DNA of 64,000 nucleotides, taken from positions 101,237-165,236 of the forward strand of contig JACJWR010000001.1 of NCBI GenBank assembly GCA_020637055.1, written 5' to 3'. Below, piece by piece: positions 1-16,922 of this stretch. The notes under the pieces were generated by a model. It was not told where the DNA came from. It searched no databases and saw only the letters and a list, made by a program, of their open reading frames with translations. This DNA is from Actinomycetota bacterium. Lineage in GTDB: Bacteria > Actinomycetota > Actinomycetes > S36-B12 > UBA10799. The translations under genes and the position numbers were made by a program. How positions within the stretch are numbered: the first letter of the stretch is position 1; the number at the start of each line of letters is the position of its first letter.

Positions 1-1003
1 GCACCGTCTCATGCCCCTGCTCCGCGCTGGTGGCACCGGCCACGTTGATGTTCGAGCCGTTGAAGAAGTTCAGTCCGAACACCACGTCGGACATCTCCTT
101 GCGCGCGATGTAGGTCATCCGGATCGAACAGGCCTCGCCGTTGACCAGGAACGGCGTGGGCCGGCCGTCGCCGTCGAGGTATTCGATGCCCGTCACCAGG
201 ATCTCGCCGGTGCCGCGCCGGCTCAGACCGAAGTGTTGGGTGCTGTTGAGTCCGATCTTGGCCGCCTCGGCCTCGTTGACCCGCTTGAGGTAGGCATCCA
301 CCACGTCGCGGGCGACGCCCACCTCCTGCACCTCGCCGTGGTCGAGCCACATCGCCTGGTCGCACATCTCGGACACGATGCTCAAGGCGTGCGACACGAT
401 GATCACGGTCGAGCCGCGGGAGCGCAGGTCGGCGATGAAGTCGAAGCACTTGCGCTGGAAGTCTTCGTCGCCCACCGCGATGACCTCGTCGATCACGAGC
501 ACCTCGGGGTCCACCTTCACCGCGATGGCGAAGCCGAGCCGCACGTACATACCCGACGAGTAGGTCTTGACCGGGGAGTCGATGAAGTCGGCGATGCCGG
601 CGAAGTCGATGATCTCCTCGGTCTGCTGCTCGATCTGCTTGCTGGACATGCCGAGGATCGAACCGTTGAGCGCGATGTTCTCGCGGCCGGTGAGTTCCGG
701 GTGGAATCCGGCACCGAGTTCGAGCAGCGCCGACATCCGGCCGTTGACGTGCACGAATCCGGCGGTGGGCCGATAGATTCCGGCCACGACCTTGAGCGCG
801 GTGGACTTGCCGGAGCCGTTGTGGCCGATGATGCCGAACATCGAACCGCGGGGAACCTCGAAGGACGCATCGCGCAGCGCCCAGAACTCCTGGGCCTTGG
901 GCGCCTTGCCTCGCACGAACCGTTCTTTCATCGCCGTGCGACGCTCGCGCTGGAGGCGGAATCGCTTGGAGAGGTTCTCCGCCCGCACCGCGACATCGGT
1001 CAT
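1..1003 (-). CDS. Polysaccharide/teichoic-acid ABC exporter ATP-binding protein (Wzt/TagH-like), 3' end cut by window edge
   Basis: Own translation of the minus frame that is absent from the ORF track (no stop inside window): MTDVAVRAENLSKRF...FGIIGHNGSGKSTALK (Walker A)...YSSGMYVRLGFA...VLVIDEVIAVGD (Walker B)...IIVSH. In-frame TGA at 1028-1030 upstream, so ATG 1003-1001 is the first start. About 90 aa beyond the NBD (EILVTGIEYLDGDGRP...) run off the edge, like Wzt C-terminal domains. Confidence 0.85.
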   Translation of the reverse strand, partial: MTDVAVRAENLSKRFRLQRERRTAMKERFVRGKAPKAQEFWALRDASFEVPRGSMFGIIGHNGSGKSTALKVVAGIYRPTAGFVHVNGRMSALLELGAGFHPELTGRENIALNGSILGMSSKQIEQQTEEIIDFAGIADFIDSPVKTYSSGMYVRLGFAIAVKVDPEVLVIDEVIAVGDEDFQRKCFDFIADLRSRGSTVIIVSHALSIVSEMCDQAMWLDHGEVQEVGVARDVVDAYLKRVNEAEAAKIGLNSTQHFGLSRRGTGEILVTGIEYLDGDGRPTPFLVNGEACSIRMTYIARKEMSDVVFGLNFFNGSNINVAGATSAEQGHETV

Positions 1004-1065
1004 CGCGGCACCGGACCGTGTCGTGTTTCACTCACGCGTGCAACTGTAACCCGAGGCCGTCCCCG

Positions 1066-2174: not shown

Positions 2175-3053
2175 GTGGCGCGCTGGCTGGTGGTGGGTGC
2201 GAACGGGCAACTCGGGCACGACTTGATGGAGGTGCTGCCTGCGGCTGGACACGAGGCTGTCGGTATGGATCTGCCGGAGATCGACATCACCGATGCCGAC
2301 TCGGTGGCGGCGGCGCTCGACTCCGAGCTCGGGCCCTTCGATGTGGTGGTGAACGCGGCCGCCTACACCGCGGTGGACGCTGCGGAATCCGACGAGGCCA
2401 CCGCGCTGAAGGTCAACGGCGACGGCCCTGCCGTGCTCGCCGCAGCTGTGGCCGCCCGGCCGGGCATGCGTCTGGTGCAGGTGAGCACCGACTATGTCTT
2501 CGACGGGACGGCGACCGAGCCGTACGCCGAGGATGCCCCGATGGCGCCCGCCTCGGCCTACGGTCGGACCAAAGCGGCCGGTGAGACCGCGGTGCTGGAG
2601 GCGCTCCCGGATCGGGGGTACGTGGTGCGCACCGCGTGGCTGTACGGCGCGAACGGGGCCAACTTCGTCAAGACCATGCTGCGGCTGGCCGACCAGCGGG
2701 AGACCCTCGCGGTGGTGGACGACCAACGCGGGCAACCCACCTGGAGCCGCGACCTGGCGGTGGCGATCGAAGCCCTGGTCTCGTCCGGGGCACCAGCCGG
2801 GGTGTACCACGGCACGTCGAGCGGGGAGACCACCTGGTTCGGCTTCACCAGGGAGATCTTCCGCTTGGCCGGATTGGACCCCGAGCGAGTGGAGCCGACC
2901 ACCACCGAAGCCTTCCCGCGACCCGCTCCCCGCCCGGCCTACAGCGTGCTGGGCCACGAGCGTTGGGCCACGGTCGGGTTGCCTGCGATCCGCGGCTGGG
3001 ACGCCGCACTCGCCGAGGCGCTGCCGCTGATCATGGCCGCAGAACAGAGCTAG
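2175..3053 (+). CDS. rmlD: dTDP-4-dehydrorhamnose reductase
   Basis: WLVVGANGQLGHDL, STDYVFDG, YGRTKAAGE motifs; AGGAGG RBS at 2161-2166; follows rmlB by 12 nt. Confidence 0.92.
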   Translation: MARWLVVGANGQLGHDLMEVLPAAGHEAVGMDLPEIDITDADSVAAALDSELGPFDVVVNAAAYTAVDAAESDEATALKVNGDGPAVLAAAVAARPGMRLVQVSTDYVFDGTATEPYAEDAPMAPASAYGRTKAAGETAVLEALPDRGYVVRTAWLYGANGANFVKTMLRLADQRETLAVVDDQRGQPTWSRDLAVAIEALVSSGAPAGVYHGTSSGETTWFGFTREIFRLAGLDPERVEPTTTEAFPRPAPRPAYSVLGHERWATVGLPAIRGWDAALAEALPLIMAAEQS

Positions 3054-3092
3054 CGCGCGCGGGGTCGGCGCGGTGTGGCGCCGGGGGCGAGC

Positions 3093-4091
3093 TCACCGCC
3101 GTCGGCCGGACGCACCGTTGCGGCGTCGGGCGTTGGTGAACTTCGGGGCGGGCAGTTGCAGTTCGGCAGCCCGGCTCAGAAGGAACCCTTCCGTCACCGC
3201 CATGACGTCGTCGAGTGCGGTGAACACGTCCGAGACGGCGAACCGCATGAGCACCAGCGGCAACAGTTGGATGTCGTTGTGCCGACGCAGATCGGGCACG
3301 AAAGCCTCGGCTTTCGCATGCACGCTGCGGCCGTCGATCTCGTAGCCGAGGCGGTAGTCGTCGAACAGGCCGTCCATGTATCTGTTGCCGTTTCGGGTGG
3401 TCACCTGCACGTTGAGTTTCGGCCGCGGCAGCCCACGTTGGACTGCCGCACGCCAGTAGGCCGCCTCACCACCGGACGCGGCACCGGCCTCGAGTTCCTC
3501 GACCACGAGGCGCAACGCCTCGGCGCCCCCGCGCGGCGGGCGTTTCGCCGCCTGGAGTTGGCCCGGGGAAGTCAGGTTCTTGCGCACGGCATCGGCGGCG
3601 ATGCAGCGAAGGTCGTTGAGACACACCTGATCGGCGAGGTCCACCACCGTGGCCGCCACGGTAGACAGCCAAAGACCTCCGACGAAGTCACGGGGTGTCG
3701 ACCGGCGGTTGCGGTGCAGCTGGACGAGGGGGTGGCGCCGCCGCGTCGCGCCGTGCGGAATCGTGACGTCCAGGGGGTCACCGGGTCTGGGGGTCGGCAA
3801 CAGCCCGTGCAGTCCGGCAGCAGTGCGGTGTGAGAGGTGCGCCTCCTCGCCCGCGCAAAGCAGCCCGCACCGCAGCCAGCCATGGATCTGGTTCGACGCG
3901 CCAGTCGCGTCGATCACTCCGGGTAGCGGTTCCCACCAGCGCCCGGTGGCCAGTCGCCGCCGCAACCAGCCTGCGTGTACACCCGCGGCGAGCAAATCGC
4001 GACGGCGAGCAAGGCCATCACTGAGCACACCTTCGGCGATGGCGGCGGACGACACGCCCGCCACGGTGCCCGGTGCGACGTGACCGGCCAA
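3093..4091 (-). CDS. AbiEi_4-like N-terminal / DUF559 endonuclease-like C-terminal domain protein
   Basis: N-terminus GVLSDGLARRRDLLAAGVHAGWLRRRLATGRWWEPLPGV; C-terminus YRLGYEIDGRSVHA...RRHNDIQLLPLVLMRFAVSDV, resembling DUF559/Vsr-fold proteins common in actinobacteria. The ORF-track start is a TTG; GTG at 4064 is an alternative. Confidence 0.6.
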   Translation of the reverse strand: MAGHVAPGTVAGVSSAAIAEGVLSDGLARRRDLLAAGVHAGWLRRRLATGRWWEPLPGVIDATGASNQIHGWLRCGLLCAGEEAHLSHRTAAGLHGLLPTPRPGDPLDVTIPHGATRRRHPLVQLHRNRRSTPRDFVGGLWLSTVAATVVDLADQVCLNDLRCIAADAVRKNLTSPGQLQAAKRPPRGGAEALRLVVEELEAGAASGGEAAYWRAAVQRGLPRPKLNVQVTTRNGNRYMDGLFDDYRLGYEIDGRSVHAKAEAFVPDLRRHNDIQLLPLVLMRFAVSDVFTALDDVMAVTEGFLLSRAAELQLPAPKFTNARRRNGASGRRR

Positions 4092-4293
4092 GGTCCAGTA
4101 GGCGACCTGTGGAAGGGCCAGCGTTCCCAGTCACGGAGTGTTGCTGGTGCCTGCGCAGGAAGTGCCGCGGCACACACAGTCTGGATTCTCCCCATCCGAG
4201 CCAGATCGGGGCCGAACACCGGCGTGTCGTGGCCGCAAGCTGCCTGTTGGGGAGGATCGAGACCGTCTCTAGCCTCGCTTCACGCTCAAGCCT

Positions 4294-4311
4294 CCCGCCG
4301 TCACCGGCGGG
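4294..4311 (-). terminator. Stem-loop directly after GT2 gene (CCCGCCG-GTGA-CGGCGGG on minus strand)
   Basis: 7-bp GC stem, 4-nt loop, 15 nt downstream of the stop at 4326-4328; no U-tract (I-shaped type common in high-GC actinobacteria). Confidence 0.45.
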
Positions 4312-4325
4312 GCGGCCAGTTTCAC

Positions 4326-5282
4326 CTAGTTCCCGGGGCCCAAAGGGGTCGGTGCGGGGTAGGAGAGGTAACTGAGCCGGTTCGCCTCGATGCGGTTGCG
4401 GGTCACCCGCTCCAGGATGAGCCCGGTAAGGATGATCAAGCCGCCCACTGTGAGGGCGCCGACGCCGGCGATCAAACTGGGGAAACGCTCCACCAGACCC
4501 GTGCTGAAATACTCCGACACCGCGATCCAGAGCAGCACTGCGGCAAGGATCAGCCAGGGCAGGCTCAGCAGAGCGAACGCCAAGCTGGGCCGGGCATCGC
4601 GGAACAGCCGCAGGTTGCGGCGAAGGATCCGGGCGCCGTCGCGATACGTGTTGAGTTTGCTTTCGGAACCTTCCGGCCGGGCGAAGTAGGGGGTGTCCAC
4701 CTCGCCGATCGGCACGCCCAAGGTGGCGGCGTGGGCGTTGAGTTCGGCCTCGATCTCGAAGCCGGCGGCACCGGTCGGGAAGGACTTCACGAATCGACGG
4801 CTCATCACCCGGTAGCCCGAGAGAGTGTCGCGCAGCTGCAGCTTGAACAGCTTCTGGAAGATCCAGGTGAGCATCGCGTTGCCGAGCGTGTGCCCGGGGC
4901 GATACGCCTCGGCCCGCTCGCCTGCCACCACCCGGGCGCCGTTGACCATGTCCACCCCATGGTGGAGCACCAGATCCACCAACTCAGGCGCGGCATCAGG
5001 GTCGTAGGTGGCGTCGCCGTCGATCATCACGTAGCAGTCGGCCTCCACATCGGCCAGCAGCCGACGCACCGCGTACCCCTTGCCAGGGCGAGATTCCGAG
5101 AGCACCTGGGCACCGTGCTGGCGGGCGACCTCGGCGGTCCGATCCGTGGATCGGTTGTCCGCCACCACCACCACGCACCCCGGCAAGGTGCGAGAGAAGC
5201 CGTCGATCACGTCTGCGATCGTCTGCTCCTCGTTGTGGCAGGGAACGACCACTGCAACCCTGGCGTAGGGGGCGTCACTCAT
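4326..5282 (-). CDS. GT2 polyprenyl-phosphate glycosyltransferase (GtrB/CsbB/DPM1-like) with two C-terminal TM helices
   Basis: VAVVVPCHNEEQTI...VVVADNRSTDRT...GKGYAV...VMIDGDATYD (DxD) catalytic domain, then LAFALLSLPWLILAAVLLWIAV and SLIAGVGALTVGGLIILTGLIL hydrophobic helices. Confidence 0.85.
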   Translation of the reverse strand: MSDAPYARVAVVVPCHNEEQTIADVIDGFSRTLPGCVVVVADNRSTDRTAEVARQHGAQVLSESRPGKGYAVRRLLADVEADCYVMIDGDATYDPDAAPELVDLVLHHGVDMVNGARVVAGERAEAYRPGHTLGNAMLTWIFQKLFKLQLRDTLSGYRVMSRRFVKSFPTGAAGFEIEAELNAHAATLGVPIGEVDTPYFARPEGSESKLNTYRDGARILRRNLRLFRDARPSLAFALLSLPWLILAAVLLWIAVSEYFSTGLVERFPSLIAGVGALTVGGLIILTGLILERVTRNRIEANRLSYLSYPAPTPLGPGN

Positions 5283-5404
5283 GCGGTGCGGAACCTCACT
5301 GGTCTGGGCGGCGCGGCGCCGTGTCGGATGGGCCGGCGGCGCATCCTCACCCTACCGGCGCACCGGCGCCGCACCGCCGCGAACCCGATGGCGGCGCGTG
5401 TCGA

Positions 5405-7366
5405 TCAACCCCGGGCGTAGATCACGAATTGTTCGCCGTTCCACACCCCGCGGTCGAGTTCGGTCAGACAACTCGTGCCCGCCAGCGGGACCGAAGAGAT
5501 GACACGGTCGACGGCGAACTCGTCGAGCACCGGAGCGCAAGGGTCCAAAGTGATCACGATGTCGTCCGGGGCGATGGCGGTGATGACCGGCTGCTCCACT
5601 CCGGGCACCCACTCGAACGACACTTTCGACACCGCGCGGTTCCACTGCTCGGAGTACTCACCCTGCGGATCCAGCACCCGCCATCGATCCGACGGCCCCG
5701 CCCACTGTTCGCCCGACAAGGCCGGTACCCCGTTGGCGATGAGCAGCGAACTCAGGCTCGGCGAATCCACCGCGAACAGGCCCCCGGATCCTTCCGGCTC
5801 GGAGGCCAGCACCGCCGCCGCGGCCTCCGAGCCGCGCAGTGGGGCGAGTCCCTTCTGCACCGGGTTCACCGAATAGACGATGAGGCCCGAGCCGATGATC
5901 GCGGCGGCGAATCCGAGACTCAGCCAGACCGGTTTGCCGCCGGCAAACAACAGCAGGATCGCCGTGGTGACCACGGTGATCACCACGATCGTGCTGGTGG
6001 TGAGTTCAGCCACCAAGACCTCGGCCATGTTGCGACCCGCGAGGTAGAGCACCACGGCACTGGTCACGGCCACTATCCCTGCCAAGACCCACCCGAGCCG
6101 GACACCGAGCAGCGGGGCGATCGCGAGCACCACCACCAGACCCCAGATGGCGGCCATCCGGGTCGGCGGCACGAGGTTGAGCAGCGGCACCGCCTCGCCG
6201 AGCGCGACCGGCCAGTCGATCAGGAACCACGAGAACCCAACGGCCAGCAGCAACCCGGTGAGCACCACGCGCACACGCCAGCCTTTGCCGTTCGCCCGCC
6301 ATCCGGCCACGGCCAGCGCCAGCCACAACACGCCCGCGATCGTCCAACTACCCGACCATTCGGTGGGGTTGTCCACCAGGTAGGCGGGGCTGGTCTGGAA
6401 GATGCCGTCGAACGGGGCACCGAAGGAGCGGCCGAGTGCGACGAACTCACCGGCCACCCGCCGTTGGCCCGGATAGGTGGTTTCCGACAAGGCGGTGAAG
6501 GCGGCGTCGTTGAGCAGGATCAGACCCAGCGTGACGGCGGCCGCGACCACCGCGCTCGCGACGGCGACGATCGCGATCCGCAGCGCGTCCGCCTTGCTGC
6601 GGATCACGAAGATCAACGTGAGCGCGAGGACCGCTCCGGTGAGCGGCAGCGACCAGGGGGCGTAACTCCACGGCACCCTGGCCAGGGCGACCCCGGCGAC
6701 CACGGCGAGTCCGACGGTGCCCAGGATCCGCGCCCACCGGCCGCTCAGCCGCATCGCCAGCACCCAGCAGGCGGCCGCGACCACCCCGGGCAAGATCGCC
6801 GAGAAGGGCCGCAGCGACCACCAGGCGACGACCGGGGTGAGTGTGAACACTGCGGTGAGGCCGAACGCGACGCCGAACCGCGCCCCCCAGGCCATCAGCA
6901 GATACGGCAACAGCAGCAGCACCACCGCCACCGGGAACCAGAACCCGGCGGCGAACAGCGGCCCGTCGGGCAGCCATCGGCCCAGGTACTGCACACCCAT
7001 CTCGCCGAATACCGCACTCTCCAGCCACACCCCGGCATCCGCGGGCACCGTCGAGGTGACGAACGGGTCGTTGGTGAGCGGTGTGGTGAAGTCCGCGTCG
7101 CCGGCCGTCTGCACACCGAGCATCAGCGGCGTGACCCGGGCGTATTCGTCGGATCGAAGCGGTTCGGCCTGCCCGACCAGGATTCCCGATTCGACCGTCG
7201 GCTCGGAGACGTAGGTGCCCATCGACGACACCGTCACGCCCGCCAACGAGAGCACCAGCCACCCCACCAGCACCGCCACCCACCAGGCGCGCAGCAGCGC
7301 GAGGTCCTTGCCTCGATACCGTGGGGTCGCGGCAGCGTCCCGGGTGTCGATCCCAGCGGCGCTCAT
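5405..7366 (-). CDS. Polytopic membrane protein, GT-C-like candidate (654 aa)
   Basis: Start moved to ATG 7366-7364 (MSAAGIDTRD...), which overlaps the upstream stop as ATGA; the ORF-track N-terminal 190 aa are Arg/Pro-rich out-of-frame shadow. About 13 hydrophobic segments by eye, acidic first loop PLRSDEYARVTP, soluble C-terminal ~150 aa. Confidence 0.75.
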   Translation of the reverse strand: MSAAGIDTRDAAATPRYRGKDLALLRAWWVAVLVGWLVLSLAGVTVSSMGTYVSEPTVESGILVGQAEPLRSDEYARVTPLMLGVQTAGDADFTTPLTNDPFVTSTVPADAGVWLESAVFGEMGVQYLGRWLPDGPLFAAGFWFPVAVVLLLLPYLLMAWGARFGVAFGLTAVFTLTPVVAWWSLRPFSAILPGVVAAACWVLAMRLSGRWARILGTVGLAVVAGVALARVPWSYAPWSLPLTGAVLALTLIFVIRSKADALRIAIVAVASAVVAAAVTLGLILLNDAAFTALSETTYPGQRRVAGEFVALGRSFGAPFDGIFQTSPAYLVDNPTEWSGSWTIAGVLWLALAVAGWRANGKGWRVRVVLTGLLLAVGFSWFLIDWPVALGEAVPLLNLVPPTRMAAIWGLVVVLAIAPLLGVRLGWVLAGIVAVTSAVVLYLAGRNMAEVLVAELTTSTIVVITVVTTAILLLFAGGKPVWLSLGFAAAIIGSGLIVYSVNPVQKGLAPLRGSEAAAAVLASEPEGSGGLFAVDSPSLSSLLIANGVPALSGEQWAGPSDRWRVLDPQGEYSEQWNRAVSKVSFEWVPGVEQPVITAIAPDDIVITLDPCAPVLDEFAVDRVISSVPLAGTSCLTELDRGVWNGEQFVIYARG

Positions 7367-8358
7367 GGCATCCGCCGGGATTCGCGGCGACCCGGACACA
7401 ACCGACCGTGGCGCTGCTCCAAGATTCGGTGCACGGCGGAGAGCGGTTGCCGGCGGCGGCGCCAGACGTCGGCGACCACCGCAGCCCCATCGGGGGTCCA
7501 GGCCAGGGTGTGGGTGCCCAGCGCATCGGCGCTCAGGTCGGTGCCTTCGATTCGGCGGCGCACCTCGCCCGGGCCCGGGACGGCCGGGTCCCAAGTCACC
7601 AGGGAGGTGGCGACCCCGTAGTTCTCGGAGCAATCCTGCGTGCTGCGAAGACCGCGCGTGAGGTCGAGGTTCCCCGCCGGACGCGCGAGCACGGCGTCGC
7701 GGAATCGGACCTCGGGCTGTTCGATCCAGCCGACACCTTCCGGCGCGACCCACTGGCGGAACCCGGCGAACTCGTCCGAGCCGCTGGTGCCGGTGAGGTA
7801 CCAGTCCTGCCCGCCGTGGGGATCGAGCAGCGTCGTCGGATCGTCCTCGTCGGGCACCACGACCGGCGTGGGTCCGGGCGGCGGGATCGCGATCGCCGGA
7901 TCGATCACGCCGACCGGCAGGGTCCGCAGCGAGGCGATCCACGGCTCACCGACGGCGGTGAAGGTGTAGGTCGGGGCGGCCGGGTCGCACGATTCCACGG
8001 TGGCCACCCACGTCCCGTCGTTGAGGTGCACCTGCGGGAAGGAGAAATGGTGGGAACTCGCCAGCACCGTGCGGCGGGTGACCACCTGACCGGTCTCGGA
8101 GACCCGCAACGCCACTATGCGGCCCAATCCACGCCAACGGAGGTACTCCTCCACGAAGATCCACAGGTCGCCGGCGGCATCCCGGACCGGGAACGGGTCG
8201 GCCCAGAATCGGTCCCGCTCGGGAGCAGCGAGGAAAGCTCCGCCGGGCGGAGCGCCGTCGAGGAGGTCGTCGAGGGTGGGCGCGAGCACGACCACAGCCC
8301 ACGCCCGCTCCTGGGTGACACCGCGGATCAGCCGGCTCACGCCGTCCGCGCCGGTCAT
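7363..8358 (-). CDS. GINT1_N-like (glucosamine inositolphosphorylceramide transferase N-terminal-like / GH43-like beta-propeller) protein of unknown function
   Basis: FWADPFPVRDAAGDLWIFVEEY, HHFSFPQV, ARPAGNLDLTRGLRSTQDCSENYG resemble the motifs I recall for this family. Start ATG 8358-8356 overlaps the GT4 stop (ATGA). Confidence 0.6.
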   Translation of the reverse strand: MTGADGVSRLIRGVTQERAWAVVVLAPTLDDLLDGAPPGGAFLAAPERDRFWADPFPVRDAAGDLWIFVEEYLRWRGLGRIVALRVSETGQVVTRRTVLASSHHFSFPQVHLNDGTWVATVESCDPAAPTYTFTAVGEPWIASLRTLPVGVIDPAIAIPPPGPTPVVVPDEDDPTTLLDPHGGQDWYLTGTSGSDEFAGFRQWVAPEGVGWIEQPEVRFRDAVLARPAGNLDLTRGLRSTQDCSENYGVATSLVTWDPAVPGPGEVRRRIEGTDLSADALGTHTLAWTPDGAAVVADVWRRRRQPLSAVHRILEQRHGRLCPGRRESRRMP

Positions 8359-9554
8359 GGCAGATCCTCCGCATCGACGGGCGGAGCGGGGATCGGCTTT
8401 CCGCTCGCCCCCACGCTGCGGTAGACCTCGGTGATCCGCTCGATCCACTGTGCTTCGGTGTAGCGCTCATCGAAGACTTCCCGACACCTGCGACGCAACT
8501 CATCGCCGCCAGCCTCGACCCAGGCCATCGCCGCCGCCAGGCTCGCGGCGTCCACCCGACCGTCGGCGACGGTGATTCCCATCGCAACCCCGTCGGAGAT
8601 CAACTGCGCAGCATGAGGACTGTTCAGACTCACCACGATGGGAAGTCCCGCCTCGAGCGCTTCGACGATCACCAGCGGCATCGCCGATTCAGGCGCCAGA
8701 CTGGTGAACACCAGCCCGCGGTAGGTGGGCAGCGATTCGCGCAGCGCCATCGGTGGTAGTTGCCCGCGCAGGTGCACCCGGGGACCGGCAAGCTCGGCCA
8801 ATTCGTCGCGCAGCGGACCGTCGCCGACTAGGTCGAGCCGGACGTTGGCAGGCCACCCGCGGACGAGTTCGACGAATCCCTTCTCGGCGCGCAGCCGACC
8901 CACCGCCAGCCACTGGGAATCGTCGGGCATCGCACTGGCCGCTGCGTGCACCTGCGTCACGCCGTTCGGAACCAGCCGGAGCCGTCCGGTGCCCACCCCG
9001 TAGCGGGCGAAGGTGTCGCGGGCGAACGGTGAGAGCACCACCAGGGCGTCGCTGCGGGCGATAAGCGGATTCACCTCGGTGCCCATCGTGTTGCGCAACG
9101 CGATCGGAGTGCTGGCAACCCGCGATTCCCGGTAGCAGGCATGCTCCACCGCCGACCACGGTTTGCCGTCCGGACAGTCGGTGCACAGCCTACCGTCGCG
9201 GAAGAGCAGCCCGTTGGCGCAGATCGGCCGGAAGTTGTGCAGGGTGTGCACAATCGGCCCGGGCCATCGGCGCATCCAGTGCAGGCCGATGTTGGGCACC
9301 GTGTTGTGGATGTGGACCACGTCCGGGGCGAACTGCCGCAGCCGCGGGGCCGGATCGGGCCCGAAACTGGTGATGGTGCGCCAGGCGGCACGCAGTTTGT
9401 AGCCCGGCAGATGCTGTTCGTCGTCGGTGTGGCGACCCAGCAGCAGCACGTCATGCCCGGCCGCTCCGAGTGCTTCGCTCTGCGCCTCCACCACGACGTT
9501 CTCGCCACTGGACTGATCAGAGGCGTAGAAGCTGTGCAGCAGCGCGATTCGCAC
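8355..9554 (-). CDS. GT4 glycosyltransferase with Cys-rich insert
   Basis: VRIALLHSFY...SGENVVVE N-terminus; C-terminal FTSLAPESAMPLVIVEALEAGLPIV (E-x7-E); insert HNFRPICANGLLFRDGRLCTDCPDG...HAC. Start GTG 9554 (or 9563), just after the rmlC stop at 9565. Confidence 0.85.
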   Translation of the reverse strand: MRIALLHSFYASDQSSGENVVVEAQSEALGAAGHDVLLLGRHTDDEQHLPGYKLRAAWRTITSFGPDPAPRLRQFAPDVVHIHNTVPNIGLHWMRRWPGPIVHTLHNFRPICANGLLFRDGRLCTDCPDGKPWSAVEHACYRESRVASTPIALRNTMGTEVNPLIARSDALVVLSPFARDTFARYGVGTGRLRLVPNGVTQVHAAASAMPDDSQWLAVGRLRAEKGFVELVRGWPANVRLDLVGDGPLRDELAELAGPRVHLRGQLPPMALRESLPTYRGLVFTSLAPESAMPLVIVEALEAGLPIVVSLNSPHAAQLISDGVAMGITVADGRVDAASLAAAMAWVEAGGDELRRRCREVFDERYTEAQWIERITEVYRSVGASGKPIPAPPVDAEDLP

Positions 9555-9564
9555 CCGAAGGACC

Positions 9565-10176
9565 TTACCCGGCCTCGCCGGCGAGACCGGCGCGGAACGC
9601 CCGGCAGGCCTCGTAGTCCGGCAGCAGACCCGCGGCCGCCGCCTCCGCCAGGCTGGGCGCCGCATCGTCCTTCGCCGACAACGAGCACTCACCGAGGTCG
9701 AACGGCCAGGCGATACCGATCTCGGAGTCGAACGGGTAAATCTCCCGCTCGCCGGTGGGGTTGTAGGGCTCGCTGCAGAGGTAGGCGACCGTGGAACCGT
9801 CTTCGAGTGCTGCGAATCCGTGTCCGAGGCCTTCGGAGAGGTACACCGCGCGCCGGTCCTTGGTGTCGAGCAGCACGGTCTCCCACATGCCGTAGGTGGG
9901 CGATCCGACGCGGATGTCGACGATCACATCCACCACCGCGCCTGCCAGGCAGGTGACGTACTTCGCCTGACCCGGCGGGACGTCGGCGTAGTGGATGCCG
10001 CGGACCGTGCCCTTGGTCGACACCGAGCAGTTGGCCTGGGCGAGGTGCAGCGGGTGCCCGACTGCCTCGACGAAGGTCTCCTCCTTGAACCACTCGAGGA
10101 ACAACCCGCGCGGGTCGCCGTGCTGCTTCGGGGTGACGACCCAGGCGCCTTCGATACTCAACGGGGTGATCTCCAT
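9565..10176 (-). CDS. rmlC: dTDP-4-dehydrorhamnose 3,5-epimerase
   Basis: DPRGLFLEWF, RGIHYADVPPGQAKYVTC, YLSEGLGHGF cupin motifs. Confidence 0.93.
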   Translation of the reverse strand: MEITPLSIEGAWVVTPKQHGDPRGLFLEWFKEETFVEAVGHPLHLAQANCSVSTKGTVRGIHYADVPPGQAKYVTCLAGAVVDVIVDIRVGSPTYGMWETVLLDTKDRRAVYLSEGLGHGFAALEDGSTVAYLCSEPYNPTGEREIYPFDSEIGIAWPFDLGECSLSAKDDAAPSLAEAAAAGLLPDYEACRAFRAGLAGEAG

Positions 10177-10182
10177 AGCCCA

Positions 10183-10188
10183 ACGCTA
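10183..10188 (-). promoter_or_regulatory. -10-like TAGCGT 6 nt upstream of rmlC ATG (leaderless candidate)
   Basis: Minus strand reads cccgaTAGCGTtgggctATG; no RBS-like purine tract. Confidence 0.4.
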
Positions 10189-10221
10189 TCGGGCGCCGAT
10201 GCATCGAATCGGAGTTCCCCC

Positions 10222-10333
10222 GGCCCACTGCGGTGGCGATGGCCCCGCTTGGCTGGGGCGACCGACAGTGGGCACCTGCGGGCTGCTTGTTTGCCTTCAC
10301 GCCGGCGCGGGGCCATCGCCACCTCCGTGGGCC
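10222..10333 (+). repeat. Long-loop hairpin element, copy A
   Basis: Perfect 17-bp arms GGTGGCGATGGCCCCGC (10232-10248) / GCGGGGCCATCGCCACC (10307-10323), outer 7-bp GGCCCAC/GTGGGCC across a 3x3 bubble, 58-nt core 10249-10306. Confidence 0.8.
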
Positions 10334-10378
10334 TTGCTCCAGCGGGCGCCACCTCGGCGGGCTCGGGTCTGGCGGACC

Positions 10379-10496
10379 GTGCCGGGGGAGTAGGGGGCCG
10401 GCGCCGACGTAAAGGCGAAAAGCGCACGCCGCAGCTGCCCACGGACGAACGCCCCAGTCAAGCCGGCCCCCTACTCCCCCGGCACCACCGTGGGCC
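10379..10496 (-). repeat. Long-loop hairpin element, copy B (inverted relative to A)
   Basis: Perfect 24-bp arms GTGCCGGGGGAGTAGGGGGCCGGC (10379-10402) / reverse complement (10462-10485). The 59-nt core, reverse-complemented, matches the core of A at about 45 of 59 aligned positions by eye. Shares a GGCCCACGGNGGTG-type flank. Confidence 0.8.
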
Positions 10497-10511
10497 CCTG
10501 CCGCCCAGGCA

Positions 10512-10528
10512 CCGCCCGAGGCGGGCGG
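10512..10528 (-). terminator. Small GC stem-loop abutting the stop of the priming transferase gene
   Basis: CCGCCC (10512-10517) pairs with GGGCGG (10523-10528), 5-nt loop, 1 nt from stop 10530-10532. Confidence 0.35.
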
Positions 10529-10529
10529 G

Positions 10530-11942
10530 TCAGTAGGCGCCGCGGCCGGTGATCACGGCCTTGAGGGTCCGCAGCACGATGATCGCGTCCAGCGGCAACG
10601 ACCAGTTCTCGACGTAGTAGAGGTCGAGCATCACCGACTGCTCCCAGTCGAGATCCGACCTGCCCGAGACTTGCCACAGGCCGGTCATGCCAGGTTTCGC
10701 CAGCAGTCGCCGGGTCGCCACATCGTCGTAGCGCTGCACGTCGTCGAGCGGGTGCGGCCGCGGACCGATCAGGCTCATCTGGCCCCACCAGACGTTGAAC
10801 AGCTGTGGCAACTCGTCCAGCGAGAAGCGCCGCAACCAGTGGCCCACCCCGGTGACGCGAGGGTCGCGGGTCATCTTGAACGTCGCGCCGGAGCCGCCGT
10901 GTTCGGCCCGCAACTCCTCTCGCCGGGAATCGGCGTCGACGACCATGGTGCGGAACTTGAAGCACTCGAAGGTGGTGCCGCCGGCCCCGGCCCGGGTCTG
11001 CATGAAGAACACCGGACCCGGGCTGGTCAGTTTGATCAGCGCCGCGAAGATCCCCAACGGAATCGCCAGGGCGATCAACAGCAGCGACGAGCCGATCAAG
11101 TCGATGGCGCGTTTGATGACTCGGGCCGGCCCGGAGAACTTGGGCATCTCGACCCGCACCAGGGCCATCCCGTTGATCGGTTCGATACTGAGCCGCGGTC
11201 CGGCGATGTTCGCGATCTGCGGACTCACCAACAGGGAAAGGTCCTGATCCTCCATCGCCCAGCCGAGCCGTCGGGGCCAGGCTGGATCCTCGTGCTGTGC
11301 GGGGGCGTAGACGATGGTGTCGGCGTCGAGGTCGAGAGCGGCCTTCACCACGACCACCGGATCCGGATCTGGCGCGTCGGTGAGATCCCAACTGCCGACC
11401 TGCTCCATCAGCCCGCCGGACCGGGCGAACTGCTTCTCAAGCTGGGGGTACTGCGCCTGCGCTGCCACTACGAACACCCGATGCAGCGGATCGCCGCGCT
11501 GCAACCTGCGGTGCAGCACATTGCGCATCAGGGATCGATCCGCGAGCAGGAAGAGCGTCCCGACCACGGCGCTGAAGAACAGGTATCGCCTGCCGAACTG
11601 GGTTCCGGTGATGTAGGCCAGTGACATCGTCAGCGCCACGGTCCACAGACTCGCCAGCAGGACACGCCGATACTCCTCGGCACCACCGCCGAGGATCGTG
11701 GTCGCGCGGGTCTGCATCTGCCACAACATCAACGGCCACAAGACCATCAGCGACACGATCATGAACATCCGCGGGCCGTCGCTGGCCGGGCCCTCGTGGC
11801 CGATGTCGAGCACAACTCCCAGCCCCAGGGCCAGCGCGATCGCCACCAAGTCGGCCACCACGACGAGGCGGGAGTGGTTGCGCTCCTCGAGCACCACTCG
11901 GGCACGACCCACCAGATCTTGGGCGCGGCTGTTGAAGCTCAT
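10530..11942 (-). CDS. Polyprenyl glycosylphosphotransferase (WbaP/exopolysaccharide priming sugar transferase)
   Basis: C-terminal LIGPRPHPL...KPGMTGLWQVSGRSDL bacterial sugar-transferase domain, N-terminal TM helices. Start ATG 11942 (MSFNSRAQDL), 19 nt after the UXS stop; the ORF-track 63-aa extension overlaps UXS out of frame. Confidence 0.9.
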   Translation of the reverse strand: MSFNSRAQDLVGRARVVLEERNHSRLVVVADLVAIALALGLGVVLDIGHEGPASDGPRMFMIVSLMVLWPLMLWQMQTRATTILGGGAEEYRRVLLASLWTVALTMSLAYITGTQFGRRYLFFSAVVGTLFLLADRSLMRNVLHRRLQRGDPLHRVFVVAAQAQYPQLEKQFARSGGLMEQVGSWDLTDAPDPDPVVVVKAALDLDADTIVYAPAQHEDPAWPRRLGWAMEDQDLSLLVSPQIANIAGPRLSIEPINGMALVRVEMPKFSGPARVIKRAIDLIGSSLLLIALAIPLGIFAALIKLTSPGPVFFMQTRAGAGGTTFECFKFRTMVVDADSRREELRAEHGGSGATFKMTRDPRVTGVGHWLRRFSLDELPQLFNVWWGQMSLIGPRPHPLDDVQRYDDVATRRLLAKPGMTGLWQVSGRSDLDWEQSVMLDLYYVENWSLPLDAIIVLRTLKAVITGRGAY

Positions 11943-11961
11943 GCCCGGGCACCTGCACGAC

Positions 11962-12909
11962 TCACCCCAGGACTCCCGAGTCCCGGAACCACTCCACCGT
12001 CCGCGCCAAGCCGACGTCCAAGTGCACCTTCGGCTCCCACCCCAGGGTTTCCACCGCCCGGGTGATGTCGGGCTGGCGCTGTTTGGGGTCGTCGGCGGGC
12101 AGCGGCTCGTGCCGCACCTTGCGCCCGCCACCCACGAGGTCGGTCACCCGGGTGGCCAACTCCAGCATCGACATCTCGTTCGGGTTGCCCAGGTTGATCG
12201 GACCGGTCACCTCGTGCTCGGTGGCCATCATCCGAATCAGGCCCTCGACCAGATCGTCCACGTAGCAGAAAGACCTCGTCTGGGTGCCGTCGCCGTAGAC
12301 CGTCAGATCACGCCCCTGCAGCGCCTGGACGATGAAGTTGCTCACCACCCGCCCGTCGTCGGGCTGCATCCGCGGGCCGTAGGTGTTGAAGATCCGCACC
12401 ACCTTGATCGGCATGTCGTGCTGACGGCGGTAGTCGAAGAACAGCGTCTCGGCGCAGCGCTTGCCCTCGTCGTAGCAGGACCGCACGCCGATCGGGTTCA
12501 CGTTGCCCCAGTAGCTCTCATCCTGCGGGTGCACGGTCGGATCGCCGTAGACCTCGGACGTCGAGGAGAGCAGGATCTTCGCGCCCACACGCTTGGCCAG
12601 GCCCAGCATGTTGATCGAGCCGATCACCGACGTCTTCGTGGTCTGCACCGGATCGCGCTGGTAGAACACCGGCGATGCCGGACACGCCAGGTTGTAGATC
12701 TCGTCCACCTCGACGTACAGCGGAAAGGTGATGTCGTGGCGCATCAACTCGAACCTGGGATTGCTCAGCAGGTGGTGAATGTTGCGACGGGTGGACGAAT
12801 AGAAGTTGTCCACGCACAACACCTCGGCGCCCTCATCGAGCAACCGCTCGCACAGATGACTGCCGATGAATCCCGCACCACCAGTCACGAGGACACGCCT
12901 ATACGTCAC
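11962..12909 (-). CDS. UDP-glucuronate decarboxylase (UDP-xylose synthase)
   Basis: [47 protein letters not shown]: strong resemblance to the UXS/ArnA-decarboxylase SDR family. GTG start. Confidence 0.88.
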
Positions 12910-12916
12910 ACCGGCC

Positions 12917-12922
12917 AGTCTA
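12917..12922 (-). promoter_or_regulatory. -10-like TAGACT 7 nt upstream of UXS GTG (leaderless candidate)
   Basis: Minus strand reads ggtTAGACTggccggtGTG. Confidence 0.4.
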
Positions 12923-13073
12923 ACCCTGGGCCACCGGCGGACCCGCGCATTTGGGTCCCGGCGAAACCGGCGCCCCCCGACCCTGCCCGGGCGGCGGCGC
13001 CCGCCACCGCCGGAGCACCGTGATCCGCCGATAGGCTGATCCCCGAACCCCGACGGCTCGGCGAGGAGGTGCG

Positions 13074-14198
13074 GTGGACAGCATCGATGTGCTGATCGAC
13101 GACCAGATCTTCCTCATGCACGCCCGGGGCGGAATCTCACGCTACTTCGCCGAGCTGCTGCGGGAGTTCGACAGCCACCCCGAGTGGGGTATCAACGCCC
13201 TCAACAGCGTCCGCTACTCACCGAATCAGCACCTGCGGGAGGTTGATCCGAGTGTCCGGGACCTGCCGTTCCGGGAGATGTCGCGGCGCTGGAAGGTGGC
13301 CAAGCGCCTGGCGCGGTATCCATCGGCGGTGATCGCCTCCAGGATGGCGCCCGACGTCGTGCACTTCACCTACTACGACCCCCGGCGGCTGGACATCTTC
13401 CCGGGAGTGCCGAAGGTGGTGACGGTGCACGACATGGTGCCCGAACGGCTGCCGGCGGAACTCGTCGACGGTGACCCCCACCTGGCCAAGCGGGAGTACG
13501 TCGAGGCGGCCGACGCGATCGTCTGCGTCTCCGAGGCGACCCGCAACGATCTCTTCGAGGCGTGGGGGGAGATCACCGACAAGCCGGTGATCGTCACCGG
13601 CCATGGTGCGGCCGACCGGTTCAACCCCGGGGTGGCGCCGGCCGAACTCGGCTACCGCTACCTGCTGCACGTCGGCTCCCGCGATCACTACAAGAACTTC
13701 GGCCTGCTCATGACCTCCTACGCCGGCAGCGAAGCCCAATCGGCCGGGGTACGGCTGCTGGCCGTCGGCGGCGGCCCGCTCACCGCCGAGGAGCAGGAAC
13801 TCGCCACCACCCTCGGAATCGGCGACGACCTGGTGCAGTTGACCGCCTCCGAGGCCGACCTGCCGGGGATCTATCGCGGCGCGGAACTGTTCGTGTTCCC
13901 TTCGCTGCTGGAAGGATTCGGCATCCCGGTGCTGGAGGCGATGGCCACCGGAACTCCGGCCGTGCTCGCCGACACCCCGGTGTTCCGCGAGGTGGCCGGC
14001 GACGCCGCGGTCTTCTATCCACCGGAGGACCCGTGGGTGCTACGAGCCGAATTGAACCGCCTGCTCGGCGACGCCACCGCCCGCACCGAACTCGCCGCCG
14101 CAGGTGTGCGGCGGGCGGCTGACTTCTCCTGGCGCCGAACGGCGCTGGACACCGCCGAGTTGTATCGGGACCTGGTGGCCCGACGGAGCACAACGTGA
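13074..14198 (+). CDS. GT4 glycosyltransferase
   Basis: [26 protein letters not shown] (E-x7-E), [20 protein letters not shown] at 13063-13069, GTG start; TAGGCT -10-like at 13032-13037. Confidence 0.88.
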
Positions 14199-15082
14199 AC
14201 GAATCCGCGGGCGACGGGCCGTGGCTGTCGGTGGTGACGGTGGTGCGCAACGACGCCGACGCCCTGCGGCGCACGATCGACAGCGTCGCCACCCAGCAGA
14301 CCGACCTGCTCGAACATCTGATCGTGGACGGGGCCTCCACCGACGACACGCTGCCTATCGCCCGAGCCGCCGAATCCCACTCGCCCTGGCTGCGGGTGGT
14401 GAGCGCCGAAGACTCCGGGATCTACAACGCGATGAACTCCGGTATCGGCCTGGCACGCGGATCTCACCTGCTCTTCCTCAACGCCGGCGACGACTTCACC
14501 TCCCCGGGCGAGGTCGCCGCGGTGCACGAGGATTGGCGACGCGAGCGCTATGACTGGGGCCGCTATCGCGCACGATTCGTCGATGCCGCCCGCAACTCCA
14601 CCCGACCGCTGTCGTCGGCCGAGTTGGACGTCGACCGTTTCCTGCGTGGGGAGCAGGAGCGGTACCACCAGGGCGCGATCATGTCGAAATCGATGCTGGT
14701 GCAGTTGGGCGGATTCGACGAGCGCTATCGGATCGTGGCCGACTTCGACTTGATGAGGCGGGCGCTGTTGGCCGGCTACCGGCCGTGGATCAGCGAGCGG
14801 ATCATCACCGACTACGACGCGTCGGGCCTGTCGGCGGTGGCCTGGCGGCGGTCGTTGGCCGAGGAACACGCGGTGCGCTGCGCCGGGGCAGCCCCGGCGG
14901 TTCGCGCGTCGTCCACCTGGACCTACGCCCGCCGGGCGGCCGTGATCGCCACGAAACGTTCGCTGCGCCGGGGCGCCGAGCAAGTGCTCGGGAAGGAGCG
15001 GGTCAGCGCACTGCGCGGTGCCGATCTGGCCGCGGCGCCGGAAGGCGCGGAGAAGGCGGAGGGATCCCCGCATGGCCGGTAG
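14195..15082 (+). CDS. GT2 glycosyltransferase
   Basis: LSVVTVVRNDADAL...LIVDGASTDDT...IYNAMNSGI...FLNAGDDF. GTGA overlap with the preceding gene. Confidence 0.88.
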   Translation: MNESAGDGPWLSVVTVVRNDADALRRTIDSVATQQTDLLEHLIVDGASTDDTLPIARAAESHSPWLRVVSAEDSGIYNAMNSGIGLARGSHLLFLNAGDDFTSPGEVAAVHEDWRRERYDWGRYRARFVDAARNSTRPLSSAELDVDRFLRGEQERYHQGAIMSKSMLVQLGGFDERYRIVADFDLMRRALLAGYRPWISERIITDYDASGLSAVAWRRSLAEEHAVRCAGAAPAVRASSTWTYARRAAVIATKRSLRRGAEQVLGKERVSALRGADLAAAPEGAEKAEGSPHGR

Positions 15083-16922
15083 GACACGTGGCAAAGAGGT
15101 GGCCCGCAAAGTGCTCAACTGGCCCGGGGTGGGCCCCGCGGTCGGCCGTGCGGTGGGCCGCCTCGGACGAGCCAGCGGACGTGCGGCACCGGCCCTCGAC
15201 AGCGTCTACCGCCGGTTGCCGAGCAGCGCGGGACTGCCCTTCGGCGCCACCGTGGAATCCCAACGCCGAGCCCTGCTGAAGTACTACGCGAGGCTGGACC
15301 ACGACGTCGCGGCCGTGGCCTACCGGCCGCGCATCAGCATCGTGGTGCCCACCTACAGACCGGTCTACCGATACCTGCACGAGATGCTCGGCAGCATCGC
15401 GCTGCAGACCTACCCCGACTGGCAGCTGTGCATCGTGGACGACGCCTCCGGCGACCCGAATCTCACCAGGATCCTCGCCGGTTTCGCCGAGACCCACCCG
15501 GGCAAGGTGGCTTTCGCCACCCGAGCCGAGAACGGCCACATCGCCGCCACCAGCAACGACGCCCTGGCCCTCGCCGACGGCGACTACGTGGCCCTGCTCG
15601 ACCACGACGATCGGCTGTACCCCCATGCCCTGGCCGAGGTGGTGCTCGGGCTCAACGCCCACCGCAGCCGGGACGGTCGGTACCCCGCCGTGCTCTACAC
15701 CGACGAGCGGATGATCGACGAGGACGGCGCCCCGATCGGCGAGGTATGGCTGAAACCGGACTGGATGCCGTTGCTGCACCTGACCAGCAACTACACCAAC
15801 CACCTCACCGTGTACTCCCGTGACCTGCTCACCGAACTGGGCGGGTTCCGTTCCGGGTTCGACGGATCCCAGGACCACGACCTGATGCTGCGGGCCACCG
15901 AGGCCAGCGAACAGGCCGGGCTGCCGGTGGTGCACCTGCCGACGATCGCCTACCAGTGGCGCAGCCACCCCGGCTCGGTGGCGAAGGACCCGGGCGTGAA
16001 GTCCTATTCGATCGAACCCGCGATGCGGGCGGTCGCGCAGGCGTGTGAGCGGCGAGGGCGCCCGGCCAAAGTCTGGCGGGAACCGGGGATTGTGGCGAAC
16101 CGGATCGACTTCGCCGTCGCGGAGCCGGTCCCGCAGGTCGAGGTCGTGGTACTCGACGATCGGGCGGCCAGAACACCTGCGGTGGGGGCGGGCAGCTCCG
16201 ACCAGGTGGGCAGCTACCCCAACGCCGTGGTGCACCGCGTCACGGCCACCGCCGAGCACCCACCGGCCGAGGTGCTGCAAGCCGCGCTCGACAACTGCGA
16301 GGCGCCGTATCTGGTGGTGTTGAGCAGCGAACTCGTCCCGCAGCGCGACGACTGGATCATGGCGATGGTCAACCTCGCACAACTGCCGGAGGTGGGCGTG
16401 GTGGGCGGGCTGCTGCTGACTGCGGCCGGCGATGTGGCCGCCGCTGGCCTGATCGGCCTGGGCTCGGCCGGGACGGCGCCGGCGATGGCCGGGATGCCGC
16501 CCACCGAAGAGGTGTACCTGGCCTGGCCGGCCAGCATCCACGAGGTGCTCGCGGTGGATTCGGCCGCGATGATGGTCGACGTCGCCGCCGCCAGGTCCGC
16601 CGGCGGATTCACCGCACATCCGGAGTTCGGCTACTTCCACTACGGCACCGATCTCTGCCTGCGACTGCGCCAGGCGGGCCTGACCACGGTGTTCACCCCC
16701 TACGCCGAGTTCCGATTCACCGGCCCCGAGACCAGCCCGCAGGTCGACCTGGCCCAGCGCAGCGCTTTGGTGGCCCGCTGGGGGCACGTGCTGGCCGCGG
16801 ATCCCTACTTCAACCCGGGGTTGGCGCGATCGCCGCAGTTCCGGGTGGACCCCACGCTGACACTGCCGGAGGTGCCGCCGGTCGTGTTCGACTCCTGGTT
16901 GGCCGACGGCCGGATCGGCTGA
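15072..16922 (+). CDS. Two-domain GT2 glycosyltransferase
   Basis: ISIVVPTYRPVYRYL...CIVDDASGDP...LLDHDDRL (domain 1); second GT2-like half VEVVVLDD...LVVLSSELVP...DLCLRLRQAG. Start set to ATG 15072 (11-nt overlap with the preceding gene); ORF-track start 15018 is also possible. Confidence 0.8.
   Translation: MAGRTRGKEVARKVLNWPGVGPAVGRAVGRLGRASGRAAPALDSVYRRLPSSAGLPFGATVESQRRALLKYYARLDHDVAAVAYRPRISIVVPTYRPVYRYLHEMLGSIALQTYPDWQLCIVDDASGDPNLTRILAGFAETHPGKVAFATRAENGHIAATSNDALALADGDYVALLDHDDRLYPHALAEVVLGLNAHRSRDGRYPAVLYTDERMIDEDGAPIGEVWLKPDWMPLLHLTSNYTNHLTVYSRDLLTELGGFRSGFDGSQDHDLMLRATEASEQAGLPVVHLPTIAYQWRSHPGSVAKDPGVKSYSIEPAMRAVAQACERRGRPAKVWREPGIVANRIDFAVAEPVPQVEVVVLDDRAARTPAVGAGSSDQVGSYPNAVVHRVTATAEHPPAEVLQAALDNCEAPYLVVLSSELVPQRDDWIMAMVNLAQLPEVGVVGGLLLTAAGDVAAAGLIGLGSAGTAPAMAGMPPTEEVYLAWPASIHEVLAVDSAAMMVDVAAARSAGGFTAHPEFGYFHYGTDLCLRLRQAGLTTVFTPYAEFRFTGPETSPQVDLAQRSALVARWGHVLAADPYFNPGLARSPQFRVDPTLTLPEVPPVVFDSWLADGRIG

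Follow-up and report, generated by a model that had tools for sequence, protein, structure and literature searches.

Overlapping genes for a GINT1_N-like propeller and a likely GT-C membrane protein in an actinobacterial rhamnose polysaccharide cluster probably belong to two different functional modules

Here we describe two overlapping genes found in a 64,000-nucleotide stretch of DNA from an uncultured actinobacterium (GenBank assembly GCA_020637055.1, contig JACJWR010000001.1, positions 101,237 to 165,236 of the forward strand), called the window in the following. The first gene (7363-8358, minus strand) encodes a soluble protein of 331 amino acids modelled as a five-bladed beta-propeller, and the second (5405-7366, minus strand) encodes a polytopic membrane protein of 653 amino acids with the Pfam domains DUF7657 and DUF7654, predicted to be a glycosyltransferase of the GT-C fold. 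Both lie in a cluster that contains rmlB, rmlC and rmlD, an ATP-binding cassette (ABC) transporter ATPase of the Wzt type with a C-terminal glycan-binding domain, a WbaP-type initiating transferase and several glycosyltransferases of families 2 (GT2) and 4 (GT4), a gene content that fits the synthesis of a rhamnose-containing cell-wall polysaccharide exported by an ABC transporter. Immediately upstream of the propeller gene lies a gene for a GT4 of 399 amino acids (8355-9554, minus strand; Pfam Glyco_transf_4 and Glycos_transf_1), preceded by rmlC, which encodes dTDP-4-dehydrorhamnose 3,5-epimerase (9565-10176, minus strand; PF00908, E 1.5e-58). Downstream of the membrane protein gene, on the same strand and after a spacing of 122 nucleotides, lies a gene for a GT2 of 318 amino acids (4326-5282, minus strand). 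A preliminary description of this DNA had read rmlC, the GT4 and the two overlapping genes as an operon closing with a membrane protein of 654 amino acids. The gene order stands; the protein has 653 residues (654 codons counting the stop), the GT2 had been omitted, and the membrane protein gene is not the end of the transcription unit. In a scan of positions 3000-13200 for promoters and terminators no terminator-like site was seen between these two genes, and nothing was found either way.

Both start/stop overlaps that had been described can be read in the sequence. On the minus strand, the ATG of the propeller gene (8358-8356) overlaps the TGA of the GT4 gene (8357-8355) in the local sequence gccATGAccgg (ATGA at 8355-8358), and the ATG of the membrane protein gene (7366-7364) overlaps the TGA of the propeller gene (7365-7363), the local sequence around 7366 being gccATGAgcgcc (ATGA at 7363-7366). 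Both ATG starts are supported by public proteins of the same lengths, one of 331 amino acids (P0001, 98% identical) and one of 653 amino acids (P0047, 100% identical), each recorded as 'MAG: Actinobacteria bacterium' (MAG, metagenome-assembled genome). From this translational coupling a stoichiometric complex of the two proteins, acting jointly on the polymer, had been proposed. The overlap at 7363-7366 is real, and one related MAG (L001/L002) has the two genes in the same order. At 9 of the 31 same-strand junctions of the whole window (69% G+C), or about 30% of them, however, the sequence would allow a start codon to overlap the preceding stop by 4 bp (or 1 bp), and the ATGA at 7363-7366 is not more than the chance expectation in this window. 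More generally, where the G+C content of a genome is high, a start and a stop sharing 4 bp are no evidence of a protein complex; the G+C content of the window is 66-72%.

Co-occurrence of the two gene families contradicts such a complex. In profile searches of 73 other loci bearing a gene of the GINT family, to which the propeller is related (see below), all of them outside this lineage, DUF7657 was found in none (0/73). Two loci with close orthologues of the propeller gene are also without a nearby DUF7657 gene: L014, where the order is rmlC, GT4, propeller, GT2 and GtrA, and L015, where GT4 and propeller genes are followed by an unrelated gene. No GINT-like gene was found at the other DUF7657 loci, comprising 11 genome loci (L003-L013) and 4 metagenome loci (L018-L021), the search with hidden Markov model profiles included. 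The two genes are adjacent only in the window and in the related MAG, and the proposed co-conservation is not upheld. The conserved neighbour of the propeller gene is the upstream GT4, which lies directly upstream on the same strand at all five loci with close orthologues and within 300 bp at 21 of the 73 GINT-family loci; the more distant propeller genes of L016 and L017 are flanked by GT4 genes as well. Among close relatives of the membrane protein, the conserved neighbour is the downstream GtrB-like GT2, with a full-length orthologue directly beside the DUF7657 gene in L001, L018 and L019, as in the window, and a partial one in L021. The predicted locations of the proteins also argue against the complex, since the propeller has no export signal, whereas the membrane protein turns its conserved face outward and exposes to the cytoplasm no more than a variable N terminus and loops of about 3-10 residues, which leaves little for a cytoplasmic propeller to bind. 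We consider the stoichiometric complex highly improbable and favour, with a probability of roughly 0.6, the reading that each of the overlapping genes is part of a different functional module within the cluster and that they do not form a dedicated pair.

The 331-amino-acid protein contains the motifs FWADPFPV..GDLWIFVEEY, HHFSFPQV and RPAGN...RSTQDCSENYG, all of which are present in the translation as quoted in the preliminary description, where they had led to its assignment to a GINT1_N/GH43-like propeller family. It gave no Pfam match even at E=10, falling below the gathering threshold of PF24793 (GINT1_N), and no NCBIfam match. A phmmer search retrieved first the close orthologues, about 22 in number and all from actinobacterial MAGs (Nanopelagicales among them), then a tier of six distant relatives of 301-519 amino acids, four of them with N-terminal extensions, and then carriers of PF24793, among them P0029 (E 7e-10), which itself scores 7e-40 on PF24793. 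When the alignment of the orthologues was compared with that of canonical GINT1_N proteins using hhalign, a probability of 99.4% was obtained (E 7e-22, 265 columns). Judged by these comparisons, the protein is a remote, divergent homologue of GINT1_N over the whole domain. Its AlphaFold2 model is confident (predicted local distance difference test, pLDDT, 93.7), with about 19 strands that form roughly five blades, one helix at the N terminus and two at the C terminus, in agreement with the family proposed.

PF24793 is the domain at the N terminus of plant glucosamine inositolphosphorylceramide transferase 1 (GINT1) and is also found in bacterial proteins of about 550 amino acids. In plant GINT1 this domain is fused to a GT64 domain, whereas the propeller of the window is a separate protein beside a GT4. 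Common to the propeller and GINT1_N are the invariant WADP, E, IDP, RPAG, R..Q, YG and H; the propeller differs by lacking the N-terminal domain of about 250 amino acids of the canonical bacterial proteins, and by carrying a loop inserted at about residues 158-183, which is rich in proline, together with a basic tail with H310, H317 and C321. No paper on GINT1_N, PF24793 or PF24677, and nothing relevant on the GINT1 N-terminal domain, was found in the literature searched. The basic C-terminal helical tail (about residues 303-331; 7366-7450, minus strand) occurs in the actinobacterial GINT-like clade and is missing from canonical GINT1_N; S307, H310, R311, E314, H317 and C321 are invariant among the close orthologues, and the tail could be a membrane-, metal- or partner-binding element. 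In the canonical bacterial proteins (P0029-P0046), the N-terminal domain of about 250 amino acids has no Pfam match and contains a conserved 'HHGD..(R)GGP.GFWE' stretch, which in our view recalls formyltransferase-like folds. At one further locus (L022), a canonical GINT1_N gene lies beside genes for a Wzx-type flippase, a GT4 and an acetyltransferase.

Searching the Protein Data Bank (PDB) with Foldseek, the propeller model matched sialidases, GH130, GH43, GH62 and GH117 enzymes with template-modelling scores (TM-scores) of 0.4-0.46, which are generic for the fold class; the GH130, GH43 and GH62 enzymes are among the best of these matches, with E values of 1e-4 to 1e-3 at TM-scores of 0.43-0.46. 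A profile search of PDB sequences yielded a weak GH43 match (E 0.15) and nothing significant. The resemblance to the five-bladed glycosidases and phosphorylases of GH130, GH43 and GH62 and to the GT108 transferases is thus at the level of the fold, with no sequence-level membership; six-bladed sialidases match equally well, and the catalytic residues of the GH families cannot be mapped on the propeller. It also differs from the GH130, GH43 and GH62 enzymes in its predicted cytoplasmic location and in its biosynthetic, not degradative, gene context. Hydropathy analysis revealed no signal peptide, membrane segment or other hydrophobic segment, and the protein is therefore most likely cytoplasmic.

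Nine residues of the propeller show no variation even among sequences with as little as 20% identity: D54, E70, D153, R226, R238, Q241, Y247, H283 and D297. Two of them, D54 and D153, sit in xDP motifs, which we take to resemble the catalytic aspartate motifs of GH43, GH32 and GH68. These invariant polar residues argue for a specific ligand or catalytic site, and because of this conserved polar pocket an enzyme or a specific sugar- or phosphate-binding subunit is more likely than a scaffold. A non-catalytic partner of the GT4, serving as an acceptor-binding, lectin-like or membrane-tethering subunit, is possible but rather unlikely. It would agree with the GT4 being the conserved neighbour, with a basic helical tail of the actinobacterial clade (residues 307-328) that could bind the membrane or a partner, and with the failure to map a catalytic triad, but it does not readily explain the nine invariant polar residues, two of them in xDP motifs, or the weak GH43 and GH68 Pfam matches given by relatives of the propeller. 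Propellers of this superfamily can moreover act as phosphorylases or transferases (PMC12814180, PMC10913872, PMC4599007) and, by analogy with GH130, the conserved basic residues could bind phosphate (PMC4599007); we regard both as leads.

The membrane protein matches DUF7657 over residues 29-417 (E 4e-29, 101.9 bits against a Pfam gathering cut-off of 26) and DUF7654 over residues 512-650 (E 5e-16, 59.1 bits against a cut-off of 27). Among 1.84 billion cluster representatives searched with a profile there were 2,882 relatives at E<=1e-3, nearly all of about 650 amino acids and with both domains. The genome matches to DUF7657 that carry organism names are all from Actinomycetota (Arthrobacter, Agromyces, Nocardioides, Sphaerisporangium and Propionibacteriaceae). 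The AlphaFold2 model (pLDDT 77, predicted TM-score 0.81) has 13 membrane helices, a number in the range of GT-C glycosyltransferases (8-13 or more); they are also seen in the hydropathy profile and agree with the approximately 13 hydrophobic segments counted previously, followed by a C-terminal alpha/beta domain (about residues 505-653; 5408-5854, minus strand) that corresponds to DUF7654. The orientation was deduced from hydropathy and charge counts using the positive-inside rule, which predicts the N terminus and the short Arg/Lys-rich loops inside and the C terminus outside. By the charge counts, the acidic first loop, the loop at 286-343 and the C-terminal domain (net charge -11) are placed outside.

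The first loop, which follows the first helix, spans residues 49-139 (about 90 residues), has a net charge of -9 and contains short helices at 78-88 and 110-130. Its sequence PLRSDEYARVTP, present in the open reading frame 5405-7366, had been likened to the catalytic loops of GT-C enzymes. This likeness is strengthened by the invariance of R71, D73 and E74, both in 17 and in 60 diverse DUF7657 members (21-47% identity), and the R71-S-D73-E74 codons (7145-7156, minus strand) thus encode a candidate catalytic acidic motif. W182, Y235, P299, G300, E336, W380, R403, P502, N576, C610 and C633 are likewise invariant in the 60 members, and the polar invariant residues lie on the predicted outer face. 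The two cysteines of the last approximately 150 residues, a region already noted as a soluble domain with two Cys, are C610 and C633; the pair is compatible with a disulfide in an exported domain, and DUF7654 is possibly an acceptor-binding domain.

When the membrane protein model was compared with the PDB using Foldseek, AftA (8if8) was found with an E value of 4e-4 and a probability of 1.0, together with DPY19, AglB, ALG3, STT3 and EmbB. Matches to GT-C proteins had probabilities of 0.87-1.0, and no membrane protein outside this fold exceeded 0.15. The best two, the mycobacterial arabinosyltransferase AftA and the C-mannosyltransferase DPY19 (7zlg), have E values of 4e-4 and 4e-3, probabilities of 0.99-1.0 and a similar size; the identity to them is 8-12% with TM-scores of 0.33-0.39, and the motif of the membrane protein is R-x-D-E. 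AftA and DPY19 use lipid-phosphate-sugar donors, and they have about 13 helices and an outward-facing active site. We consider the membrane protein likely, though not proven, to be an outward-facing glycosyltransferase of the GT-C fold. That it might rather be another envelope protein, for instance an assembly factor or a ligase of the polymer, or else a transporter or flippase that moves the polymer or the lipid-linked sugar, seems improbable. In favour of such a role, no flippase is identified in the cluster, the GT-C TM-scores are only 0.33-0.39, and the literature searched holds no paper on DUF7657 or DUF7654. However, every transporter match stayed at a Foldseek probability of 0.14 or less with TM-scores of about 0.1, a Wzt-type ABC exporter is already present in the cluster, and the invariant polar residues cluster on the outer face. 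They include the acidic motif of the first loop, in keeping with GT-C enzymes, in which an extracellular loop usually bears a DxD motif, unchanged or modified (PMC8035078). The expectation of a GT-C-like rather than a transporter protein is supported in that the only credible matches among PDB structures are GT-C enzymes.

The GT2 downstream has the architecture of the GtrB/DPMS or dolichyl-phosphate (Dol-P)-hexose synthase type, with the Pfam domain Glycos_transf_2 (PF00535, E 1e-19) at residues 11-159 and two C-terminal membrane helices at 237-255 and 271-289 in the hydropathy profile. Its best NCBIfam matches are to models of Dol-P and Und-P sugar synthases, namely AglJ (1.6e-51), Dol-P-hexose transferase (3e-24) and PpgS (4e-13). 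In the favoured reading of two modules, the GT2 and the membrane protein would form the first. At the cytoplasmic face, the GT2 would use a nucleotide sugar to charge polyprenyl phosphate with a sugar, a flippase not identified in the window would move the lipid-linked sugar across the membrane, and the DUF7657/DUF7654 protein would transfer the sugar onto the exported polymer outside. Catalysis would involve the invariant R71-x-D73-E74, with possible contributions from Y298-P-G-x-R302, E336 and R403, which are invariant and on the outer face, while the C-terminal domain with its putative disulfide would hold the acceptor glycan. The GT4 and the propeller would form the second module and act together in an earlier, cytoplasmic step on the lipid-linked glycan.

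The first module resembles the multi-component systems by which Gram-positive wall polymers are glycosylated, in which a membrane-linked GT-A enzyme makes a C55-P-sugar, a flippase moves it and a GT-C enzyme with a DxD-like motif in an outer loop transfers it (PMC8035078; GacI/GacL, bioRxiv 10.1101/180810). Such systems include GacI/GacL of Streptococcus pyogenes, CsdAB/CD/EF of Lactococcus, CsbB/YfhO and GtlA/GtlB (PMC8035078). As in these, the gene of a membrane-anchored GT-A/GT2 adjoins that of a large polytopic GT-C-like protein with an acidic outer-loop motif, and both lie inside a rhamnose polysaccharide cluster with an ABC exporter. Unlike them, the membrane protein does not resemble YfhO, PMT_2, GtrC, GacL or any solved GT-C in sequence and brings along a C-terminal domain of its own (DUF7654), its gene is not accompanied by one for a GtrA or Wzx flippase, and the host is an uncultured actinobacterium. 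DUF7657 homologues elsewhere, including a branch at about 30% identity, also lie in rhamnose or galactofuranose clusters.

Several points weigh against the favoured reading. Compared with solved GT-C structures the model reaches only low global TM-scores, the sequence of the membrane protein matched no solved structure when PDB sequences were searched with profiles, and the model is weakest at the motif, with pLDDT below 50 for residues 47-76; it is for these reasons that we rate GT-C membership as likely and not proven. Neither a GtrA- nor a Wzx-type flippase is present in the cluster of the window. The GT2 falls below the NCBIfam cut-offs (AglJ, 175.5 bits against 325; Dol-P-hexose transferase, 85 against 375), and in the DUF7657 branch at about 30% identity only about 2 of 10 loci have a neighbouring GtrB-like GT2, with none in the examined flanks of 4 loci. 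Finally, what the analysis shows are folds, topology, invariant residues, remote homology and gene-neighbourhood statistics; donor, acceptor, catalytic roles, that of the propeller included, and any physical contact between the propeller and the GT4 are matters that we infer.

A more far-reaching, joint reading would be that the GT4 and a GINT1_N-type propeller form a conserved two-protein glycosylation unit, separate in bacteria and fused as GINT1 in plants, in which the propeller is itself an enzyme, be it a glycosyltransferase, a phosphorylase or a trimming enzyme, with a fold that has so far not been recognised in the biosynthesis of glycans, and that DUF7657/DUF7654 proteins are a large actinobacterial GT-C family decorating rhamnan- or galactofuranan-type wall polymers. 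Taken as a whole we regard it as speculative and unlikely to hold in all its parts. If DUF7657/DUF7654 proteins are GT-C enzymes, approximately 2,900 actinobacterial sequence clusters would gain a testable function, namely the decoration, outside the membrane, of wall polysaccharides of rhamnose or galactofuranose, polymers that determine phage recognition and the integrity of the envelope, with D73 and E74 as clear residues to mutate. Their mechanism would be conventional, that of an uncharacterised family within the known kind of system in which GT-C enzymes decorate wall glycans. The GT4-propeller unit is more intriguing, and the linkage of these two genes offers a tractable bacterial entry to the role of the GINT1_N domain, which is also part of a plant sphingolipid glycosyltransferase.

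As to the gene models, coding frames were marked by the codon-position G+C pattern, checked over the first 30 kb or so of the window. The longest open reading frame of the GT4 gene (up to 9692) overruns into rmlC, and the start is probably GTG 9554, which is preceded by AAGG, rather than 9692, because rmlC stops at 9565 and the orthologues have 389-396 amino acids. An equally long frame at 9689-10300 (203 amino acids) was considered for rmlC and rejected as a shadow frame, the PF00908 match falling in 9565-10176. Further upstream lies the gene of the initiating enzyme, a polyprenyl-phosphate glycosyl-1-phosphate transferase (Bac_transf; 10530-11942, minus strand, start approximate; PF02397 1.8e-62, TIGR03025 4e-111), whose orthologues have 470 amino acids. 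Between it and rmlC there is a gene-free gap of about 350 nucleotides (10177-10529; about 750 nucleotides in L001) in an otherwise tightly packed minus-strand array, which may hold an internal promoter or regulatory element.

Downstream of the GT2, a gene at 3093-4130 (minus strand, 332-345 amino acids) shows the G+C pattern expected of a coding sequence, and its Pfam match, to REase_MTES_1575, is only weak (E 0.032). The syntenic relative L001 has a polytopic membrane protein gene of the DUF2142 family at this place. A frameshifted DUF2142 gene at 3075-4375 (plus strand), suspected from this synteny, was rejected, as a tblastn search of the window gave no DUF2142 match and the G+C content by codon position showed the minus-strand gene 3093-4130; with no detectable remnant of DUF2142, the latter looks like a gene replacement. 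In L019 there are two DUF7657 paralogues (4182-6044 and 8001-9998), one of which closes a cassette of GT2, GtrA, aminotransferase, oxidoreductase and acetyltransferase genes. The slot of the second L019 copy is taken in L014 by a polytopic DUF2142 gene (13001-14548), which suggests that DUF7657 and DUF2142 are interchangeable in the cassette-closing role.

At the left edge, the gene of the ABC ATPase with the Wzt C-terminal, glycan-end-binding domain (2-1027, minus strand) is cut by the end of the window, and the cluster, with its ABC-transporter-dependent export, therefore continues to the left. On the other side it is closed by a gene for a protein of 634 amino acids with two GT2 domains (15018-16922, plus strand), which may be the backbone polymerase and has syntenic copies in L001, L014, L018 and L019. 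Past 16.9 kb, unrelated genes follow, encoding a Zn peptidase, proline catabolism enzymes, a TetR-family regulator, a P-type ATPase and a RadA-like protein.

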